From NCBI RefSeq assembly GCF_009931435.1, contig NZ_CP043414.1: 64,000 nucleotides of DNA, one strand, 5' to 3'. This DNA is from Escherichia coli. GTDB lineage: Bacteria; Pseudomonadota; Gammaproteobacteria; Enterobacterales; Enterobacteriaceae. Both the position numbers and the translations under genes were made by a program. The number at the start of each line of letters is the position of its first letter. Position 1 is the first letter of the stretch. A model generated the notes under the pieces. That model was not told where the DNA came from. It saw only the letters and a program-made list of their open reading frames with translations, and ran no database searches. Shown in pieces: positions 1,415 to 56,315 of this stretch.

Positions 1415-1494
1415 GGTATCGTCGCCGCCCGGTTTGGTCTTTCCCCAGTTGCCTGGGGAAAATCCTCACTAAGCTTCATCACGCAGACGCGTGA

Positions 1495-1680
<186 letters not shown>

Positions 1681-1719
1681 TCAATTACGGTTTATCCCCG
1701 ATCCAACGGGGAGCACCAA

Positions 1720-2253
<534 letters not shown>

Positions 2254-2276
2254 TTAACTTTGTAACGTCATAGAGT

Positions 2277-2445
2277 CAAAGAAAAAGGCAGCCTGTGGTT
2301 GCCTTTTGCCAATAATTCGCACACATTGCGGGTTACTGCTTTATTTTCGTTCAGTGCTGATAACGAACATCAACCTGCAAAACGAAGCGCATAGTTTAAA
2401 ATGGCTATCATCAATACGCTATATCTGATGGAAAAAAATATGCCT
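2277..2445 (-). ncRNA. sraB: possible SraB small RNA in the yceD leader region; approximate coordinates
   Basis: From memory, SraB maps between yceF and yceD, co-oriented with yceD. No boundary can be read from sequence alone. Confidence 0.25.
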
Positions 2446-3024
2446 AAACTTATTTTAGCCTCCACCTCGCCCTGGCGTCGCGCTCTTCTGGAAAAACTGC
2501 AAATCTCTTTTGAATGTGCAGAACCCGAGGTCGACGAAACCCCACGCAGCGACGAATCACCGCGACAGTTGGTGCTTCGACTGGCACAAGAAAAAGCGCA
2601 ATCTCTGGCGTCACGTTATCCGGATCATTTAATTATTGGTTCAGACCAGGTATGTGTTCTTGATGGCGAAATCACCGGTAAACCGTTAACGGAAGAAAAT
2701 GCCCGTCTGCAATTACGCAAAGCCAGCGGCAATATCGTCACCTTCTATACTGGACTGGCGTTGTTTAATTCGGCGAATGGGCATCTGCAAACAGAAGTGG
2801 AGCCTTTTGACGTCCATTTCCGTCACCTGAGCGAGGCGGAGATTGATAATTACGTGCGTAAGGAGCATCCCCTGCACTGCGCGGGTAGCTTTAAGAGTGA
2901 AGGATTTGGCATTACGCTGTTTGAGCGTTTAGAAGGGCGTGACCATAACACGCTGGTTGGTTTACCGCTAATCGCGCTGTGTCAGATGTTACGTCGGGAA
3001 GGGAAAAATCCGCTGATGGGATAG
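2440..3024 (+). CDS. yceF: Maf-like nucleotide pyrophosphatase YceF
   Basis: Track ORF 2401-3024 trimmed to internal ATG at 2440 ([21 protein letters not shown]...), giving 194 aa. Confidence 0.9.
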
Positions 3025-3032
3025 TTTTTTAC

Positions 3033-3104
3033 GCCGGATGCAGGTATGTCGCATCCGGCAATCGGTGCTGGCGGCCTGATGCGGCGTAAACGCCTTATCA
3101 GGCC
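3033..3104. repeat. REP/BIME palindromic unit pair
   Basis: gccggatgcaggtatgtcgcatccggc followed by gcctgatgcggcgtaaacgccttatcaggcc between convergent yceF and rluC. Confidence 0.8.
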
Positions 3105-3135
3105 AACCGCCCATTATCAGGTTTATATGCTTGTA

Positions 3136-4095
3136 TTAGCGCGCGTTACGCAGCTTTTGCAAACAACGCTTCAAACCTTCATCCATCGGCGCTTCGATAC
3201 GCATCACCTCACCGGTTCCCGGATGGGTAAACTTCAACGCTGCGGCGTGCAGGAACAGACGATTTAATCCCGTGCCTGCTTCAGTGAGCTGTCTATCAAA
3301 TTCACGGTCACCGTAGCGATCGTCAAAGGCAATCGGATGACCCGCATACTGTGTATGCACACGGATCTGATGAGTACGCCCAGTTACCGGGCTACAACGC
3401 ACCAGGGTGGCAAATGCATAGCGTTCTTCCACTTTAAAGCGTGTTTCCGACGGTTTACCTTCCTGACTCACACGCACGATACGTTCGCCACTTTGCAGAA
3501 TATTTTTCAGCAACGGCGCTTGTACGCTCTTCACATGCGACTGCCACTGACCGCGCACCAGCGCCAGGTAATCTTTTTGCATCCCTTTTTCACGTAATTG
3601 CTCATGCAGAGAACGCAACGCCGAGCGTTTTTTCGCTACCAGCAACACACCGGAAGTGTCCCGGTCGAGACGATGTACCAGTTCAAGGAACCGCGCTTCC
3701 GGGCGCAACGCCCGTAAACCTTCGATAACGCCGAAGCTTAAACCACTGCCGCCATGTACTGCCGTACCGGAAGGTTTATTCAGCACCAGGATATGCTCAT
3801 CTTCATATAAGATGACGTCCGCCAGCGCCGCCACCTTTTGCAGATGTGGCGAAACCGCCTCCTCTTCACGTTCAGCAACGCGAACCGGTGGAATACGCAC
3901 CTCATCACCTGCTTCGAGTTTATATTCAGGCTTAATACGTTTTTTGTTCACCCGCACTTCGCCTTTACGCAAAATACGGTAAATCATACTTTTAGGTACG
4001 CCTTTCAATTGGGTACGCAAAAAGTTGTCGATACGTTGCCCCGCTTCGTCCGCGGTGATAGCAACAATTTTTACGGATGGAGTCTCTGTTTTCAT
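3136..4095 (-). CDS. rluC: 23S rRNA pseudouridine synthase RluC
   Basis: 319-aa ORF MKTETPSVKIVAITADEAGQRIDNFLRTQLKGV... with S4 and pseudouridine synthase motifs (HRLDRDTSG). Confidence 0.95.
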   Translation of the reverse strand: MKTETPSVKIVAITADEAGQRIDNFLRTQLKGVPKSMIYRILRKGEVRVNKKRIKPEYKLEAGDEVRIPPVRVAEREEEAVSPHLQKVAALADVILYEDEHILVLNKPSGTAVHGGSGLSFGVIEGLRALRPEARFLELVHRLDRDTSGVLLVAKKRSALRSLHEQLREKGMQKDYLALVRGQWQSHVKSVQAPLLKNILQSGERIVRVSQEGKPSETRFKVEERYAFATLVRCSPVTGRTHQIRVHTQYAGHPIAFDDRYGDREFDRQLTEAGTGLNRLFLHAAALKFTHPGTGEVMRIEAPMDEGLKRCLQKLRNAR

Positions 4096-4667: not shown

Positions 4668-7600
4668 ATGAAAAGAATGTTAATCAACGCAACTCAGCAG
4701 GAAGAGTTGCGCGTTGCCCTTGTAGATGGGCAGCGTCTGTATGACCTGGATATCGAAAGTCCAGGGCACGAACAGAAAAAGGCAAACATCTACAAAGGTA
4801 AAATCACCCGCATTGAACCGAGTCTGGAAGCTGCTTTTGTTGATTACGGCGCTGAACGTCACGGTTTCCTCCCACTAAAAGAAATTGCCCGCGAATATTT
4901 CCCTGCTAACTACAGTGCTCATGGTCGTCCCAACATTAAAGATGTGTTGCGTGAAGGTCAGGAAGTCATTGTTCAGATCGATAAAGAAGAGCGCGGCAAC
5001 AAAGGCGCGGCATTAACCACCTTTATCAGTCTGGCGGGTAGCTATCTGGTTCTGATGCCGAACAACCCGCGCGCGGGTGGTATTTCTCGCCGTATTGAAG
5101 GCGACGACCGTACCGAATTAAAAGAAGCACTGGCAAGCCTTGAACTGCCGGAAGGCATGGGGCTTATCGTGCGCACCGCTGGCGTCGGCAAATCTGCAGA
5201 GGCGCTGCAATGGGATTTAAGCTTCCGTCTGAAACACTGGGAAGCCATCAAAAAAGCCGCTGAAAGCCGCCCTGCTCCATTCCTGATTCATCAGGAGAGC
5301 AACGTCATCGTTCGCGCATTCCGCGATTACTTACGTCAGGACATCGGCGAAATCCTTATCGATAACCCGAAAGTGCTCGAACTGGCGCGTCAGCATATCG
5401 CTGCATTAGGTCGCCCGGATTTCAGCAGCAAAATCAAGCTGTACACTGGTGAAATTCCGCTGTTCAGCCACTACCAGATCGAGTCGCAGATCGAGTCCGC
5501 CTTCCAGCGTGAAGTTCGTCTGCCATCCGGTGGTTCCATTGTTATCGACAGCACCGAAGCGTTAACAGCCATCGACATCAACTCCGCACGCGCGACCCGC
5601 GGCGGCGATATCGAAGAAACCGCGTTTAACACCAACCTCGAAGCTGCCGATGAGATTGCTCGTCAGCTGCGCCTGCGTGACCTCGGCGGCCTGATTGTTA
5701 TCGACTTCATCGACATGACGCCAGTACGCCACCAGCGTGCGGTAGAAAACCGTCTGCGTGAAGCGGTGCGTCAGGACCGTGCACGTATTCAAATCAGCCA
5801 TATTTCTCGCTTTGGCCTGCTGGAAATGTCCCGTCAGCGCCTGAGCCCATCATTGGGTGAATCCAGCCATCACGTCTGCCCGCGCTGCTCCGGTACCGGC
5901 ACCGTGCGTGACAACGAATCCCTGTCGCTCTCTATTCTGCGTCTGATTGAAGAAGAAGCGCTGAAAGAGAACACTCAGGAAGTGCATGCCATTGTTCCTG
6001 TACCAATCGCTTCTTACCTGCTGAACGAAAAACGCTCTGCGGTAAATGCCATTGAAACTCGTCAGGACGGCGTGCGCTGTGTGATTGTGCCAAACGATCA
6101 GATGGAAACCCCGCACTACCATGTGCTGCGCGTGCGCAAAGGGGAAGAAACCCCAACCTTAAGCTACATGCTGCCGAAGCTGCATGAAGAAGCGATGGCG
6201 CTGCCGTCTGAAGAAGAGTTCGCTGAACGTAAGCGTCCGGAACAACCTGCGCTGGCAACGTTTGCCATGCCGGATGTGCCGCCAGCGCCAACCCCAGCTG
6301 AACCTGCCGCGCCTGTCGCAGCCCCAGCACCTAAAGCTGCATCAACAACACCAGCAACTCCTGCACAACCTGGGCTGTTGAGCCGCTTCTTCGGCGCACT
6401 GAAAGCGCTGTTCAGCGGTGGTGAAGAAACCAAACCGACCGAGCAACCGGCACCGAAAACTGAAACGAAACCGGAACGTCAACAGGACCGCCGTAAGCCA
6501 CGTCAGAACAACCGTCGTGACCGAAATGAACGCCGCGACACACGTAGCGAACGTAATGAAGGCAGCGATAATCGCGAAGAAAACCGCCGTAATCGTCGCC
6601 AGGCACAGCAGCAGACTGCCGAGACGCGTGAGAGCCGTCAGCAGGCTGAGGTAACGGAAAAAGCGCGTACCACCGACGAGCAGCAAGCGCCGCGTCGTGA
6701 ACGTAGCCGCCGCCGTAATGATGATAAACGTCAGGCGCAACAAGAAGCGAAAGCGCTGAATGTTGAAGAGCAATCTGTTCAGGAAATCGAACAGGAAGAA
6801 CGTGTACGTCCGGTTCAGCCGCGTCGTAAACAGCGCCAGCTGAATCAGAAAGTGCGTTACGAGCAAAGCGTAGCCGAAGAAACGGTAGCCGCACCAGTGG
6901 TTGAAGAAACTGCCGCTGCCGAAACCATCGTTCAGGAAGTGCCTGCTCCGCGTACAGAACTGGCGAAAGTCCCGCTGCCAGTCGTAGCGCAAACTGCGCC
7001 GGAACAGCAGGAAGAGAACAATGCTGATAACCGTGATAACGGTGGCATGCCGCGTCGCTCTCGCCGCTCGCCTCGTCACCTGCGCGTAAGTGGTCAGCGT
7101 CGTCGTCGCTATCGTGACGAGCGTTATCCGACCCAGTCGCCAATGCCGTTAACCGTAGCGTGCGCGTCTCCGGAACTGGCCTCTGGCAAAGTCTGGATCC
7201 GCTATCCGATTGTACGTCCGCAAGATGTACAGGTTGAAGAGCAGCGCGAACAGGAAGAAGTACAAGTGCAACCGATGGTGACTGAGGTCCCTGTCGCCGC
7301 CGCTGTCGAACCTGTTGTTAGCGCGCCGGTTGTTGAAGAAGTGGCTGAAGTCGTAGAAGCCCCCGTTCAGGTTGCCGAACCGCAACCGGAAGTGGTTGAA
7401 ACGACGCATCCTGAGGTGATTGCCGCCGCGGTAACTGAACAGCCGCAGGTGATTACCGAGTCTGATGTTGCCGTAGCCCAGGAAGTTGCAGAACACGCAG
7501 AACCGGTGGTTGAACCGCAGGAAGAGACGGCTGATATTGAAGAAGTTGCCGAAACTGCTGAGGTTGTGGTTGCTGAACCTGAAGTTGTTGCTCAACCTCC

Positions 7601-7853
7601 CGCGCAAATCGTCGCTGAAGTCGCAGCAGAAGTTGAAACGGTAGCCGCTGTTGAACCTGTATTAGCTGTTGAGCATAACCACGCTACCGCGCCAATGACG
7701 CGTGCTCCGGCTCCGGCATATGTTCCGGAGGCACCGCGTCACAGTGACTGGCAGCGCCCTGCTTTTACCTTCGAAGGTAAAGGTGCTGCAGGTGGTCATA
7801 CGGCAACGCATCATGCATCTGCCGCGCCTGCGCGTCCGCAACCTGTTGAGTAA
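4668..7853 (+). CDS. rne: ribonuclease E
   Basis: 1061-aa [64 protein letters not shown]...; catalytic N-terminal half followed by Arg-rich and acidic low-complexity scaffold. Confidence 0.97.
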
Positions 7854-50209: not shown

Positions 50210-51187
<978 letters not shown>

Positions 51188-51381
51188 TTATCGTTATGAT
51201 CTACAAAGGCCACCAGCATAACAAATCCGTGGTCGGTGGCAAAAAAAGCAGATTTCGCTTATTAAAACTGCATATTGATTGAAGTTTGAATAAACGCGCG
51301 ATTTTTTTAAAAAGTTTGTTGACCTCAGGTCATGATTTCCCTAAATTAGCGCCCGTTCCAGCAAGACAGGAACGACAATTT

Positions 51382-51469
51382 GGTGAGGTGTCCGAGTGGC
51401 TGAAGGAGCACGCCTGGAAAGTGTGTATACGGCAACGTATCGGGGGTTCGAATCCCCCCCTCACCGCCA
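51382..51469 (+). tRNA. serX: tRNA-Ser (anticodon GGA), CCA encoded
   Basis: ggtgaggtgtccgagtggctgaaggagcacgcctggaaagtgtgtatacggcaacgtatcgggggttcgaatccccccctcaccgcca; long variable arm, T-loop GGTTCGAATCC, anticodon GGA. Confidence 0.93.
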
Positions 51470-51931
51470 TCTTTAAAGAAGAGCTCGTACGAAAGTACGG
51501 GCTTTTTTTTCGTATATTGCACACACCGGGGGGATGAGAAGCCCCGACAGGGGTTCGACAACTGGCGACAGCCAGTTGGACAGACCGTGAACGCAGTGAG
51601 CGGGCTGCCCGCAGGGCGAGCGAAGCGAGTCAATCCCCCCCTCACCGCCATCTTTAAAGAAGAGCTCGTACGAAAGTACGGGCTTTTTTTTTGTATATTG
51701 CACACACCGGGGGGATGAGAAGCCCCGACAGGGGTTCGACAACTGGCGACAGCCAGTTGGACAGACCGTGAACGCAGTGAGCGGGCTGCCCGCAGGGCGA
51801 GCGAAGCGAGTCAATCCCCCCCTCACCGCCATCTTTAAAGAAGAGCTCGTACGAAGGTACGGGCTTTTTTTTCGTATATTGCACACACCGGGGGATGAAA
51901 AGCCCCGACCGGGGTTCGACAACTGGCGACA
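51470..51931 (+). repeat. tRNA-linked tandem direct repeat array: about 2.5 copies of a 181-bp unit, each ending with the 3'-terminal 19 nt of serX
   Basis: Copies at 51470-51650, 51651-51831 and a truncated copy at 51832-51931. Copies 1 and 2 differ by one C/T; copy 3 has about four substitutions or indels. The tRNA 3'-end motif aatccccccctcaccgcca recurs at 51451-51469, 51632-51650 and 51813-51831. Confidence 0.9.
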
Positions 51932-51934
51932 AAC

Positions 51935-53302
51935 TCAATCATCATCCTTGCAGTTGATAAGAATTTCTGCCTCTTTTACAACTATCTTATTACGTCCGGT
52001 TTCTTTCGCTTCATATAGTGCATTATCAGCCATTCGATAGATTTCATTCGGATTTAACGCACTTCCCTGAGTCACCACAGCGCCAATGCTAATCGTCACT
52101 TTTTGCGGTATGGCGTATTCAGGATTATCGCCTGTCAAACGCTCTACATTTGCCCTTATCCTTTCGGCTAAAACTTTCGCGCTTTCAGTATCGGTCTCCG
52201 TCAGCAAGACGCCAAACTCTTCGCCGCCAACGCGTGCTAAAAGGTCATTTGGTCGTATGCTTTTCCCAATGATGCTCACCACTGTTTTTATCACCTGATC
52301 GCCAACCGGATGCCCCCACGTATCGTTAACTTTTTTAAAGTGATCGATATCCATAATCATGACACAATAAGACGTTTTTTGGGCTGATGCTGATTGAGCC
52401 TTCAGTTCATTGAAAAAATAATTCCTGTTAAATATATTAGTTAATGGATCGCGATGGGCAATGTTCTTTGTTACTCGTAGCGCACTGAAAATATGGCACA
52501 TAAATATTACCATAACGGTTAATTTACTGACTACTTCAATAGTGCGGCTAATATACCAAGTGGACACACTATACCTGCTCATAAATAACAGAGAGATATT
52601 ATACAGCACGGCACAGAAAGCAATCACTGATACTCCATTCCAGATATCACAGCGTAAACCATTAAAGTATAGATTAACCAAAAGCAAGATTAACCACATG
52701 AAAATTATTATGGTAACATATGAGGTTTTCCAGACTACCTGACCATTTTCATTTGTTAACTCGGCAATATGTAAACTGTAGTCATCATAATGACTACTTA
52801 GCATGTGAGCAACTGCCGCCCCCCCATAAATAAAAAATAGGCTTATACACAATGTCATTTTTTTGGAAAAAAAACAGCGTTTCTTATTGTTTTCACTAAC
52901 TTTATTCACCAGCGCTAGCAATATTAACATGCACAAACTCATCTGACGAAACAAATAATAAATTGCAATATCATTTTGTACAACGCTGCTTATCAAATGC
53001 CCCTCAATAAATTGCTGAATGATAATGACAGTTTTAACAAAGTAAATCAAACAACTCAGAAACGCTAAACTAAGTATACAGTTTGAAAATTGCACACGAT
53101 CATAAATGAAATACAATTGCATGAAAATAAATGCAACGGTATCGATAAAAAATAAAGCAATCATAACCATTAGATAGGTTGATCGTGGAACAACCTCCTC
53201 AACGGTTGGCTGATTAAACCAACTATTTACCAAAACGAATGCAAGCCCAAACAATAAGCTCACCAATACAGTACTACTAATTCCCAAATAGTCTTTTTCC
53301 AT
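51935..53302 (-). CDS. dgcT: diguanylate cyclase DgcT (YcdT), MASE4 membrane domain plus GGDEF
   Basis: Track ORF trimmed to ATG at 53300-53302 (MEKDYLGISSTVLVSLLFGLAFVLVNSWF...), about 455 aa; GGDEF active-site variant RVGGEEFGVLL. Confidence 0.9.
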   Translation of the reverse strand: MEKDYLGISSTVLVSLLFGLAFVLVNSWFNQPTVEEVVPRSTYLMVMIALFFIDTVAFIFMQLYFIYDRVQFSNCILSLAFLSCLIYFVKTVIIIQQFIEGHLISSVVQNDIAIYYLFRQMSLCMLILLALVNKVSENNKKRCFFSKKMTLCISLFFIYGGAAVAHMLSSHYDDYSLHIAELTNENGQVVWKTSYVTIIIFMWLILLLVNLYFNGLRCDIWNGVSVIAFCAVLYNISLLFMSRYSVSTWYISRTIEVVSKLTVMVIFMCHIFSALRVTKNIAHRDPLTNIFNRNYFFNELKAQSASAQKTSYCVMIMDIDHFKKVNDTWGHPVGDQVIKTVVSIIGKSIRPNDLLARVGGEEFGVLLTETDTESAKVLAERIRANVERLTGDNPEYAIPQKVTISIGAVVTQGSALNPNEIYRMADNALYEAKETGRNKIVVKEAEILINCKDDD

Positions 53303-53649
53303 AAAGCTACACCAATCTGTAGGTTGTAGATCCCTTTCTGTCACTAATAGATATAAGAACTGTACTGTTGTCAATATAAAAATCCACCACAAACAATACC
53401 AATGATGATAGTTGCAGACCGCAATTATTATTACCTTAGTGCTTTATACATTCTTCGCGACAAGACAGGCTTGCAAATACATATAAATGGTTATAAGGAA
53501 ATCCTTATAAAACATTAATTCATAGATATATTAGGAATAACAATTGAATCCGTGAGTACAGTAACGCTGCATTTCATCAGGACTTTCGAAAAATCCGATA
53601 TCATGCATCGGAATTTACTGATTTAATTATTTTAATCCTAATTTATTTT

Positions 53650-53891
53650 GAAAAAGGCATTGGAATTTATGCCGTATTCCTGAAGTTCCTCATCATTGGA
53701 ATGGATTTTCGGGCGAGAAAAGGATTTTATATGGATACTCTACTCATCATTTCTTCTTCTCATCATCAACAATTCACGTCTCTCTTCCGCGTTTAATAAC
53801 GGATTATGATGTGCATAAAAAATATCTTTCGTTTCAGTTACCTGTAATTAGATACAGAGAGAGATTTTGGCAATACATGGAGTAATACAGG
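53650..53891 (+). promoter_or_regulatory. pgaA 5' leader with multiple GGA motifs (CsrA-type)
   Basis: GGA motifs recur in ...ttggaatggatt..aaaggatt..tatggata..cggattatg..catggagtaatacaggATG, including one in the Shine-Dalgarno. The pgaA leader is a known CsrA target; boundaries estimated. Confidence 0.5.
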
Positions 53892-56315
53892 ATGTATTCA
53901 AGTAGCAGAAAAAGGTGCCCGAAAACCAAATGGGCTTTGAAAATTCTTACTGCCGCATTTTTAGCAGCGAGTCCCGCGGCGAAGAGTGCTGTTAATAATG
54001 CCTATGATGCATTGATTATCGAAGCTCGCAAGGGAAATACTCAGCCAGCTTTGTTATGGTTTGCACAAAAATCAGCACTCAGTAATAACCAAATTGCTGA
54101 CTGGTTACAGATTGCCTTATGGGCCGGGCAAGATAAACAGGTTATTACCGTTTACAACCGCTACCGTCATCAGCAATTACCAGCGCGTGGTTATGCAGCT
54201 GTCGCCGTCGCTTATCGTAACCTGCAACAATGGCAAAACTCGCTTACACTGTGGCAAAAGGCACTCTCTCTGGAGTCGCAAAATAAGGATTATCAACGGG
54301 GACAAATTTTAACCCTGGCAGATGCGGGTCACTATGATTCTGCGCTGGTTAAACTTAAGCAGCTTAACTCTGGAGCACCGGACAAAGCTAATTTACTCGC
54401 AGAAGCCTATATCTATAAACTGGCGGGGCGGCATGAGGATGAATTACGGGCGATGACAGGGTCATTACCTGAAAATGCCTTAACGCAACAATATCCCACA
54501 GAATACGTGCAGGCATTACGGAATAATCAACTTGCTGCCGCGATTGACGATGCCAATTTAACGCCAGATATTCGCGCTGATATTCATGCCGAACTGGTCA
54601 GACTGTCGTTTATGCCTACGCGCAGTGAAAGTGAACGTTATGCCATTGCCGATCGCGCCCTCGCCCAATACGCTGCATTAGAAATTCTGTGGCATGATAA
54701 CCCTGACCGCACTGCCCAGTACCAGCGTATTCAGGTTGATCATCTTGGCGCGTTATTAACTCGCGATCGTTATAAAGACGTTATTTCTCACTATCAGCGT
54801 TTAAAAAAGACGGGGCAAATTATTCCGCCCTGGGCGCAATATTGGGTTGCGTCGGCTTATCTCAAAGAACATCAGCCAAAAAAAGCACAGTCAATAATGA
54901 CAGAGATCTTTTATCACAAGGAGACCATTGCCCCGGATTTATCCGATGAAGAACTTGCGGATCTCTTTTACAGCCACCTGGAGAGTGAAAATTATCCCGG
55001 CGCGCTAACTGTCACCCAACATACCATTAATACTTCGCCGCCTTTCCTTCGGTTAATGGGCACGCCTACGAGCATCCCGAATGATACCTGGTTACAGGGG
55101 CATTCGTTTCTCTCAACCGTAGCAAAATATAGTAATGATCTTCCTCAGGCTGAAATGACAGCCAGAGAGCTTGCTTATAACGCACCAGGAAATCAGGGAC
55201 TGCGCATTGATTACGCGAGTGTGTTACAAGCCCGCGGTTGGCCTCGTGCGGCAGAAAATGAATTAAAAAAAGCAGAAGTGATCGAGCCACGTAATATTAA
55301 TCTGGAGGTTGAACAAGCCTGGACAGCATTAACGTTACAAGAATGGCAGCAGGCAGCGGTCTTAACGCACGATGTTGTCGAACGTGAACCGCAAGATCCC
55401 GGCGTTGTACGTTTAAAACGTGCGGTTGATGTACATAATCTTGCAGAGCTTCGTATCGCTGGTTCAACAGGAATTGATGCCGAAGGTCCGGATAGTGGCA
55501 AACATGATGTCGACTTAACCACCATCGTTTATTCACCACCGCTGAATGATAACTGGCGCGGTTTTGCTGGATTCGGTTATGCCGATGGACAATTTAGCGA
55601 AGGAAAAGGGATTATTCGCGACTGGCTTGCGGGTGTTGAGTGGCGGTCACGTAATATCTGGCTTGAGGCGGAGTACACCGAACGCTTTTTCAATCATGAG
55701 CATAAACCCGGCGCGCGCCTGTCTGGCTGGTATGATTTTAATGATAACTGGCGTATTGGTTCGCAACTGGAACGCCTCTCTCACCGCGTTCCATTACGGG
55801 CAATGAAAAATGGTGTTACAGGCAACAGTGCACAGGCTTATGTTCGCTGGTATCAAAATGAGCGGCGTAAGTACGGTGTCTCTTGGGCTTTCACTGATTT
55901 TTCTGACAGTAATCAGCGTCATGAAGTCTCACTTGAGGGTCAGGAACGCATCTGGTCTTCACCATATTTGATTGTCGATTTCCTCCCCAATCTGTATTAC
56001 GAACAAAATACAGAACACGACACCCCATACTACAACCCTATAAAAATGTTCGATATTGTTCCGGCATTTGAGGCAAGTCATTTGTTATGGCGAAGCTATG
56101 AAAATAGCTGGGAGCAAATCTTCAGCGCAGGTGTTGGTGCCTCCTGGCAAAAACATTATGGCACGGATGTCGTCACCCAACTCGGCTACGGGCAACGCAT
56201 TAGCTGGAATGACGTGATTGATGCTGGCGCAACGCTACGCTGGGAAAAACGACCTTATGACGGTGACAGAGAACACAACTTATACGTTGAATTCGATATG
56301 ACATTCAGATTTTAA
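53892..56315 (+). CDS. pgaA: poly-beta-1,6-N-acetylglucosamine outer-membrane export porin PgaA
   Basis: 807-aa ORF MYSSSRKRCPKTKWALKILTAAFLAASPAAKSAVNNAYDALIIEARKGN... (TPR region plus C-terminal beta-barrel). Confidence 0.96.
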   Translation: MYSSSRKRCPKTKWALKILTAAFLAASPAAKSAVNNAYDALIIEARKGNTQPALLWFAQKSALSNNQIADWLQIALWAGQDKQVITVYNRYRHQQLPARGYAAVAVAYRNLQQWQNSLTLWQKALSLESQNKDYQRGQILTLADAGHYDSALVKLKQLNSGAPDKANLLAEAYIYKLAGRHEDELRAMTGSLPENALTQQYPTEYVQALRNNQLAAAIDDANLTPDIRADIHAELVRLSFMPTRSESERYAIADRALAQYAALEILWHDNPDRTAQYQRIQVDHLGALLTRDRYKDVISHYQRLKKTGQIIPPWAQYWVASAYLKEHQPKKAQSIMTEIFYHKETIAPDLSDEELADLFYSHLESENYPGALTVTQHTINTSPPFLRLMGTPTSIPNDTWLQGHSFLSTVAKYSNDLPQAEMTARELAYNAPGNQGLRIDYASVLQARGWPRAAENELKKAEVIEPRNINLEVEQAWTALTLQEWQQAAVLTHDVVEREPQDPGVVRLKRAVDVHNLAELRIAGSTGIDAEGPDSGKHDVDLTTIVYSPPLNDNWRGFAGFGYADGQFSEGKGIIRDWLAGVEWRSRNIWLEAEYTERFFNHEHKPGARLSGWYDFNDNWRIGSQLERLSHRVPLRAMKNGVTGNSAQAYVRWYQNERRKYGVSWAFTDFSDSNQRHEVSLEGQERIWSSPYLIVDFLPNLYYEQNTEHDTPYYNPIKMFDIVPAFEASHLLWRSYENSWEQIFSAGVGASWQKHYGTDVVTQLGYGQRISWNDVIDAGATLRWEKRPYDGDREHNLYVEFDMTFRF

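Follow-up and report, generated by a model that had tools for sequence, protein, structure and literature searches.

The 64,000-nt stretch of Escherichia coli DNA analysed here, referred to below as the window, carries a tandem array of tRNA-linked repeat units between the serine tRNA gene serX and the diguanylate cyclase gene dgcT. The gene order is ycdY, ycdX and ghrA (all on the minus strand), serX and the repeats (plus strand), dgcT (minus strand) and pgaA (plus strand). Tandem Repeats Finder reports the array as a period of 181 with 2.7 copies and 98% matches (51451-51931, score 927); counted as units that begin at the base right after the serX CCA, on the same strand as the tRNA and 3' of it, the array comprises 2.55 units of 181 bp, the full units finishing with the last 19 nt of the tRNA. 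This 19-mer, AATCCCCCCCTCACCGCCA, is present exactly three times, starting at 51451, 51632 and 51813 (0 expected from 100 shuffles), and both copies downstream of the gene are identical to the serX 3' end at 19 of 19 positions. Units 1 and 2 differ by a single C/T at unit position 42, and unit 3 has three substitutions and lacks one nucleotide relative to unit 1. An earlier note, made from the sequence alone, had described the 181-bp tandem period with the tRNA end at three sites, the one C/T difference, about four changes in the third copy and a terminator-like hairpin followed by T8-9 in each unit, all of which are confirmed here; it placed the third copy 4 nt from the dgcT stop codon (51935-51937), a distance that has to be corrected to 3 nt. 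The coordinates of all features are collected in Table 1.

Table 1. Features of the serX-dgcT region of the window. R1 is a model built only from serX-type cores; positions are those of the window.
Feature	Position	Strand	Evidence or remark
ghrA, conserved upstream neighbour of serX, context only	50210-51187	-	ORF list
Promoter-like site upstream of serX (TTGACC, 17-nt spacer, TAAATT)	51319-51347	+	consensus scan 9/12; pattern match only
serX, tRNA-Ser(GGA)	51382-51469	+	ARAGORN; Rfam tRNA 53.8 bits; K-12 serX locus 98% identity (whole array stretch)
Repeat unit 1, 181 bp	51470-51650	+	core 156 bits on R1, 41.7 bits on Rfam RtT
Unit 1, AU-rich linker	51470-51482	+	
Unit 1, terminator hairpin	51483-51502	+	
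Unit 1, T8	51503-51510	+	
Unit 1, core	51514-51650	+	
Unit 1, closing helix	51528-51641	+	G-run 51528-51533 pairs with tRNA-derived C-run 51635-51641
Unit 1, arm 1	51542-51553	+	minimum-energy fold, covariation
Unit 1, arm 2	51559-51578	+	minimum-energy fold, covariation
Unit 1, arm 3	51581-51607	+	minimum-energy fold, covariation
Unit 1, arm 4	51608-51616	+	minimum-energy fold, covariation
Unit 1, arm 5	51617-51629	+	minimum-energy fold, covariation
Unit 1, copy of serX last 19 nt	51632-51650	+	exact match
Repeat unit 2, 181 bp	51651-51831	+	
Unit 2, terminator hairpin	51664-51683	+	
Unit 2, T9	51684-51692	+	
Unit 2, core	51695-51831	+	
Unit 2, tRNA 3'-end copy	51813-51831	+	
Truncated unit 3, 100 nt, more diverged	51832-51931	+	R1 partial match 30.7 bits; core stops inside arm 2 loop
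Unit 3, terminator hairpin	51845-51864	+	
Unit 3, T8	51865-51872	+	
dgcT (ycdT), GGDEF diguanylate cyclase gene, convergent with array, context only	51935-53392	-	ORF list; annotation

The array is not new, and as a discovery it carries little weight: it is a catalogued feature of the reference genome E. coli K-12 and is annotated by RefSeq in many strains. By definition, a tRNA-linked repeat (TLR) contains 18-19 bp copied from the 3' terminus of the tRNA or rRNA that precedes it (PMC8144298). The first TLRs came to light at tyrT in 1978 (Egan & Landy), and Rudd 1999 listed 22 of them at ten K-12 loci (PMC8144298). In the strain table of the same publication, 'rsX1-4' denotes a deletion of U00096.2 1096182-1096779, that is 598 bp (PMC8144298); this length corresponds to 3.3 units, and the deleted segment adjoins serX. 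K-12 MG1655 carries three full units and a partial fourth after serX (3.3 copies), to which the window array is ~98% identical; both have the same locus, the 181-bp unit, the terminator, the core and the 19-nt tRNA end, and they differ in copy number. The RefSeq (PGAP) label on the serX units in many E. coli genomes is 'RtT sRNA'. The earlier note was not aware of a described equivalent at serX; the array is listed as rsX1-4 among the 22 K-12 TLRs (Rudd 1999; EcoGene; Stenum et al. 2021, PMC8144298). Literature searches on serX with rtT and on rttR gave nothing about serX, and it was the term 'tRNA-linked repeat' that led to PMC8144298.

With the Rfam RtT model (RF00391), the window units score 41.7 bits (E=4e-6), which is 3.3 bits under the gathering threshold of 45, compared with 46.3 bits for the serX units of K-12 and 133-137 bits for the tyrT units. 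The sole difference between the window and K-12 cores is an A for C in the loop of arm 1 (51549 and 51730). As this substitution drops the score below the threshold, the window lineage (for example strain WL297) is without the 'RtT sRNA' annotation; a single-base miss of the Rfam threshold thus leaves serX units silently unannotated in some genomes.

Repeats after serX are found in K-12 and other strains, whereas copy number and the junction with dgcT differ. In K-12, ycdU, ymdE and IS3D sit between the repeats and dgcT, and the last unit is cut at the G-run; in the window, where dgcT lies right beside the repeats, the last unit breaks off within arm 2. Positions 51300-52150 are covered to at least 80% in 96 of 5,426 complete E. 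coli genomes, and the repeat-dgcT junction itself is present in 41, at 100% identity in 16: a direct junction of the window type is rare among complete E. coli genomes. Strain WL297 shows the junction as in the window with one unit fewer (1.55 copies). In the divergent Escherichia lineage L028 (E. coli SCPM-O-B-8794), whose DgcT is only 77% identical, the last unit is truncated at the same point beside dgcT. Because so divergent a lineage has the identical cut point, the junction is old, and the window arrangement is probably ancestral and the K-12 insertion probably derived. In amino-acid sequence, the DgcT protein of the window is 90% identical to its K-12 counterpart and 99.6% identical to that of WL297. 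The dgcT allele of the window is only ~90% identical to that of K-12; its last ~43 bp (51935-51977, C-terminus ...EILINCKDDD) have no counterpart in K-12 (compared with L001, 3201-3235), and this window-type 3' end is common to L028, for which reason too K-12 looks derived. It should be noted that G+C falls to 31-39% across the 5' half of dgcT and the intergenic stretch between dgcT and pgaA (52300-53900), against ~50% nearby.

Each unit is ordered as an AU-rich linker (TCTTTAAAGAAGA), an intrinsic terminator, ~17 variable nt and a core of 137 nt, the last part of which is the tRNA 3'-end copy. The terminator, one per unit, is the hairpin GCTCGTAC-GAAA-GTACGGGC with an 8-bp stem and a GAAA loop (-12 kcal/mol), followed by T8-9. 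Of 134 distinct spacers, 116 retain both the hairpin and the T-run, and the stem shows compensatory changes. As a strong terminator precedes each core, expression of the core may be very low. An A-tract upstream can lengthen the terminator hairpin to 16 pairs, flagged on both strands; hairpins flanked in this way by an A-tract and a T-tract lie at 51475-51510, 51656-51692 and 51837-51872, and the terminator copies of the array may also end the convergent dgcT transcript. A separate observation concerns Citrobacter sp. Cu233 (~5150-5230 of locus L015), in which the terminator hairpin and T-run alone are tandemly duplicated upstream of the core, with no tRNA-end copy between the two. An internal promoter was considered and rejected: the unit contains TATATT, which is not conserved, is unflagged by the scan and has no -35 element.

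The core is predicted to fold at -60.2 kcal/mol, and folding of the complete unit gives z=-5.45 relative to shuffled sequences. Minimum-energy folding and covariation together give a closing helix around five hairpin arms; the closing helix pairs GGGGGG with CCCCCC and, in addition, UGA with UCA, its C strand coming from the tRNA-end copy. Covariation was tested on 85 distinct aligned cores, with a structure obtained by refining the results of RNAalifold and of an all-pairs scan. Standard pairs make up 97.1% of cells, changes on both sides are seen in 14 pairs (130 cells), and the covariation score of 0.140 compares with 0.056 in shuffles (reached by 0 of 500) and with at most 0.029 when partners are slid, figures to be read in light of a search pattern that fixes 21 positions and a structure partly derived from the same sequences. 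Compensatory changes affect seven of the eight pairs of arm 2 and five of the six pairs in the main stem of arm 3. A tRNA-linked structured RNA family, one of the two candidate readings offered by the earlier note, is thus backed by strong covariation. Of the three small stem-loops it had picked out, ccccgacagggg and caactggc-gaca-gccagttg are parts of the conserved fold, whereas gcggg-ctg-cccgc is not conserved, only 60.6% of cells pairing across the 85 relatives, no better than in shuffled controls. A further helix proposed by RNAalifold, GUUCG:CGAGC (columns 44-48 with 110-114), was replaced by the small arm 5, because column 110 changes in concert with column 123 (CG in 76 sequences, UA in 7). 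A likeness of GAUGAGAA to the hammerhead or the K-turn (box C/D), judged by eye, was discarded, as the CUGA or helix-adjacent tandem G-A pairs that these motifs require are absent.

Species-representative genomes were scanned with the pattern GATGAGAANNNNCGACNGGGGTTCGA, which returned 147 units at 98 loci in ~20 genera. Following tRNA-Ser(GGA), the core is conserved throughout the Enterobacteriaceae, and its base pairs show compensatory changes. These include Citrobacter, Enterobacter, Klebsiella, Raoultella and Kosakonia, and further Salmonella, Pluralibacter, Atlantibacter, Franconibacter and Pantoea. Where the fetched DNA contained an upstream tRNA, the nearest was tRNA-Ser (GGA; once CGA), located ~63 nt upstream of the first unit, with more units following in ~181-nt steps up to four copies. 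The order ghrA-serX-repeat is held in more than 45 loci from many genera. Matches of the unit filed under 'plasmids' come for the most part from records of megabase size or of otherwise chromosome-like character; in these, serX is followed by tandem units, 179 bp long in Klebsiella and 184 bp long in Salmonella.

Comparison of distinct copies gave a median identity of 96.4% within a locus and 80.7% between loci. Lineage-specific substitutions are found in all copies of an array (CCATCTTT in the window vs CCATATTT in K-12), and the truncated edge copy, unit 3, is the most diverged. The serX arrays show a pattern of concerted evolution: copies are alike within an array while species diverge. Unequal recombination or gene conversion between units would expand, contract and homogenise the array.

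The likeness to the tyrT repeats that the earlier note had drawn reflects true homology, since the RtT match of the window units is reciprocated by R1, which finds the four tyrT units at 40.5-45.7 bits (E around 1e-10, ranging from 1e-9 to 4e-11). Like the serX array, the 178-bp repeats of tyrT/tyrV (rtT/RttR RNA, Tpr) are tandem units of ~180 bp that end in the last 19 nt of the tRNA and use a tRNA-derived strand for the closing helix; the cores have in common the motifs GATGAGAA, CGAC, GGTTCGAC, CCCG.AGGGCGA and GAGT.AATCC. The tyrT spacer, in contrast, is without a hairpin and T-run, whereas each serX unit has its intrinsic terminator; the segments related to the T-stem are Tyr-specific at tyrT, the Tpr frame is not conserved at serX, and the tyrT RNA has been observed experimentally, whereas the serX RNA is a prediction. 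The proK repeat (rpK) is a single copy with terminator, core and tRNA-end copy in the same order as at serX and with Pro-specific segments; it scores 101 bits on Rfam RtT and 27.5 bits on R1, on which the window units reach 156 bits. The lys repeats (47-60 bits on Rfam RtT) and arg repeats (23-31 bits, a weak match) belong to the lys/val and arg operons of K-12, where, unlike the serX units, they separate one tRNA gene of the operon from the next and have a more degenerate sequence. A restriction of the family to class II tRNAs, Ser and Tyr with their long variable arm, was rejected, as the proK, lys and arg repeats also match RtT. RrA, RrB and RrF, unlike the tRNA-linked serX units, are repeats associated with 5S rRNA and bind both Hfq and CsrA in vitro; the tRNA-linked members including rsX score <0.01 in a CsrA-binding predictor (PMC8144298). 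In the clpA-serW spacer of K-12 (locus L108, 354-381) we noted an Rfam CRISPR-DR4 match of 50.1 bits (threshold 35); no CRISPR array is annotated for this region in the K-12 record, and the match is probably a false positive caused by a palindromic repeat.

Reading the serX, tyrT and proK versions side by side, four segments vary with the T-stem of the linked tRNA. Segments 1-4 are GGGGGG, CCCC, GGGG-TTCGA and AAT-CCCCCCC in the Ser version; GGGGAAGG, CTTC, AAGG-TTCGA and AAT-CCTTCCCC in the Tyr version; and GAGGA, CCTCC, GGAGG-TTCGA and AAT-CCTCT in the Pro version. The unit thus holds both halves of the tRNA T-arm, ~75 nt apart. The pairing of segments 1 and 4 is backed by compensatory changes in Citrobacter werkmanii and in Pantoea, in which the closing helix is GAGGGGG with CCCCCTC. 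A two-state switch, in which the four mutually complementary segments would alternate between the pairings 1:4 with 2:3 and 1:2 with 3:4, was rejected on constrained folding (-60.2 vs -48.0 kcal/mol). Lineage L028 additionally contains a short unit of 106 bp (~7650-7790, minus strand), in which GGGGTTCGA is joined straight to ATCCCCCCCTCACCGCCA; the ~75-nt interior is missing and an intact T-arm, GGGGTTCGAATCCCCCCC, is restored. This short unit apparently arose by recombination between a unit and the T-arm sequence of a tRNA.

A related element appears to be the Xanthomonas sRNA sX4 (RF02223), which has tRNA-Ser, terminator, G-run and UGAGA in a serX-like order; it differs in that the tRNA is tRNA-Ser(CGA) and that no downstream copy of the tRNA 3' end was seen. 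The Rfam sX4 model scores 32.6 bits on serX and the start of unit 1 in the window, below its threshold of 70. In Stenotrophomonas maltophilia (locus L095, 12150-12435, minus strand), tRNA-Ser(CGA) is followed by a terminator and an RtT-like 5' half; this locus reaches 106 bits on Rfam sX4, and R1 matches its downstream part at 28.9 bits. Rfam RtT and sX4 appear from these matches to describe related tRNA-linked elements. For the Xanthomonas sX4, 156 nt were expected from sequencing and 280-300 nt were seen on northern blots (PMC3300014); we infer that the northern size fits a read-through transcript of tRNA, terminator and core.

Could the array instead be selfish or neutral DNA, duplications seeded by the tRNA 3' end that expand and contract by slippage or unequal crossing-over, with an RNA product that has no function? 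Copy number does vary, from 1.55 in WL297 through 2.55 in the window and 3.3 in K-12 to as many as 4 in other genera, the copies within an array are homogenised, and the terminator before each core should limit expression. A viable K-12 strain from which all 22 TLRs are missing has been constructed (PMC8144298), and TLRs are therefore dispensable in the laboratory; they have no known function according to Stenum et al. 2021, an early functional claim for rtT having been withdrawn (PMC8144298). Neutral DNA would not, however, be expected to retain 14 compensatory base pairs and long invariant unpaired motifs over ~20 genera and as far as Stenotrophomonas, nor to maintain the ghrA-serX-repeat arrangement at the level of the family, and we regard this explanation as unlikely.

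Roles at the level of DNA or transcription seem quite improbable. Under these, the units would serve as spare attB sites at which an element could land without hitting the tRNA gene, or as stacked bidirectional terminators insulating serX from dgcT. The presence in each unit of the 14-bp core used by an integrase, the A-tract/T-tract-flanked hairpin of up to 16 pairs flagged on both strands, and the end of dgcT only 3 nt from unit 3 are all in keeping with such a role, which would account for the terminator and the 19-mer but not for the ~110 covarying nt between them; in the one island-bearing strain examined, moreover, the island sits in serX itself and not in a repeat. That strain is E. coli O111:H11 88.0502 (locus L003), where positions 1441-3260 contain an integrase gene, an attR with CCCCCTCACCGCCA, a terminator and two units beside phoH; the island parts the repeats from serX, and pga-dgcT is absent.

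The second candidate reading of the earlier note, a tandem array of att-core scars, is very improbable; such scars would be what remains when islands targeting serX integrate again and again and are lost imprecisely. It is true that islands are known to integrate at serX, 14-bp direct repeats being reported there for the SRL island, that the 14-bp core CCCCCTCACCGCCA recurs in each unit, and that an integrase gene adjoins the units in 88.0502. The unit, however, has no match in 50,697 phage records (E<=0.01), and the true attR of 88.0502 (L003, position 2810) shares only the 14-bp core, whereas the units share 19 nt and a further 162 bp. Unrelated DNA of the island lies before this attR, and the native terminator with its repeats lies beyond it; the 14-bp core agrees with the direct repeats reported for the SRL island. 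Homologous units follow proK, the lys genes and tyrT, and the covariation in the interior of the unit is of the RNA type. That each unit encodes a small peptide like Tpr, an analogy also raised by the earlier note, is scarcely credible: the ATG of GGATGAGAAG is invariant and the first residues are similar (MRSPDRGST in the window vs MRSFDQGST in Tpr), but the frame has 18 codons in the window (MRSPDRGSTTGDSQLDRP) and 10 to >100 codons among 135 variants of its relatives, indels shift it after about residue 11, the product is not basic, and the G-run directly adjoins the ATG, which leaves no room to space a ribosome-binding site.

We therefore return to a structured RNA element. The serX array is very likely a member of the TLR/RtT family orthologous to K-12 rsX1-4, a structured module likely to act as RNA. 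Because its base pairing is conserved, the element itself probably acts as an RNA, for example in binding a protein or in a manner linked to processing. In the mechanism that we envisage, the core would be transcribed only upon read-through of the serX terminator by RNA polymerase; the read-through transcript would then be cleaved within the AU-rich linker that follows each CCA, and the enzymes of tRNA 3'-end maturation would trim it back to the CCA. The product would be a discrete RNA of ~140-180 nt, as documented for the tyrT rtT RNA, and would here end in ...CACCGCCA; in K-12, rttR has its 3' end at the CCA of the tRNA-end copy. By this analogy, we infer release of the serX unit RNA by processing of the tRNA transcript.

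More speculatively, rsX/RtT could be a functional structured RNA class of the gamma-proteobacteria, from Enterobacteriaceae to Xanthomonadaceae, that links RtT and sX4. In such a class, the closing helix would be adapted anew to the T-stem and 3' end of the linked tRNA, and production of the RNA would be coupled to terminator read-through and the tRNA 3'-end machinery, the RNA reporting on or modulating tRNA transcription or processing, or binding a protein partner; this is offered tentatively, as a possibility that we hold to be doubtful as it stands. Strong selection for base pairing in the serX subtype across many genera argues against junk, and a tested secondary structure is now at hand. 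The closing helix and the T-arm-like segments track the linked tRNA, and together with the link to sX4 this may help to explain the origin and role of the family.
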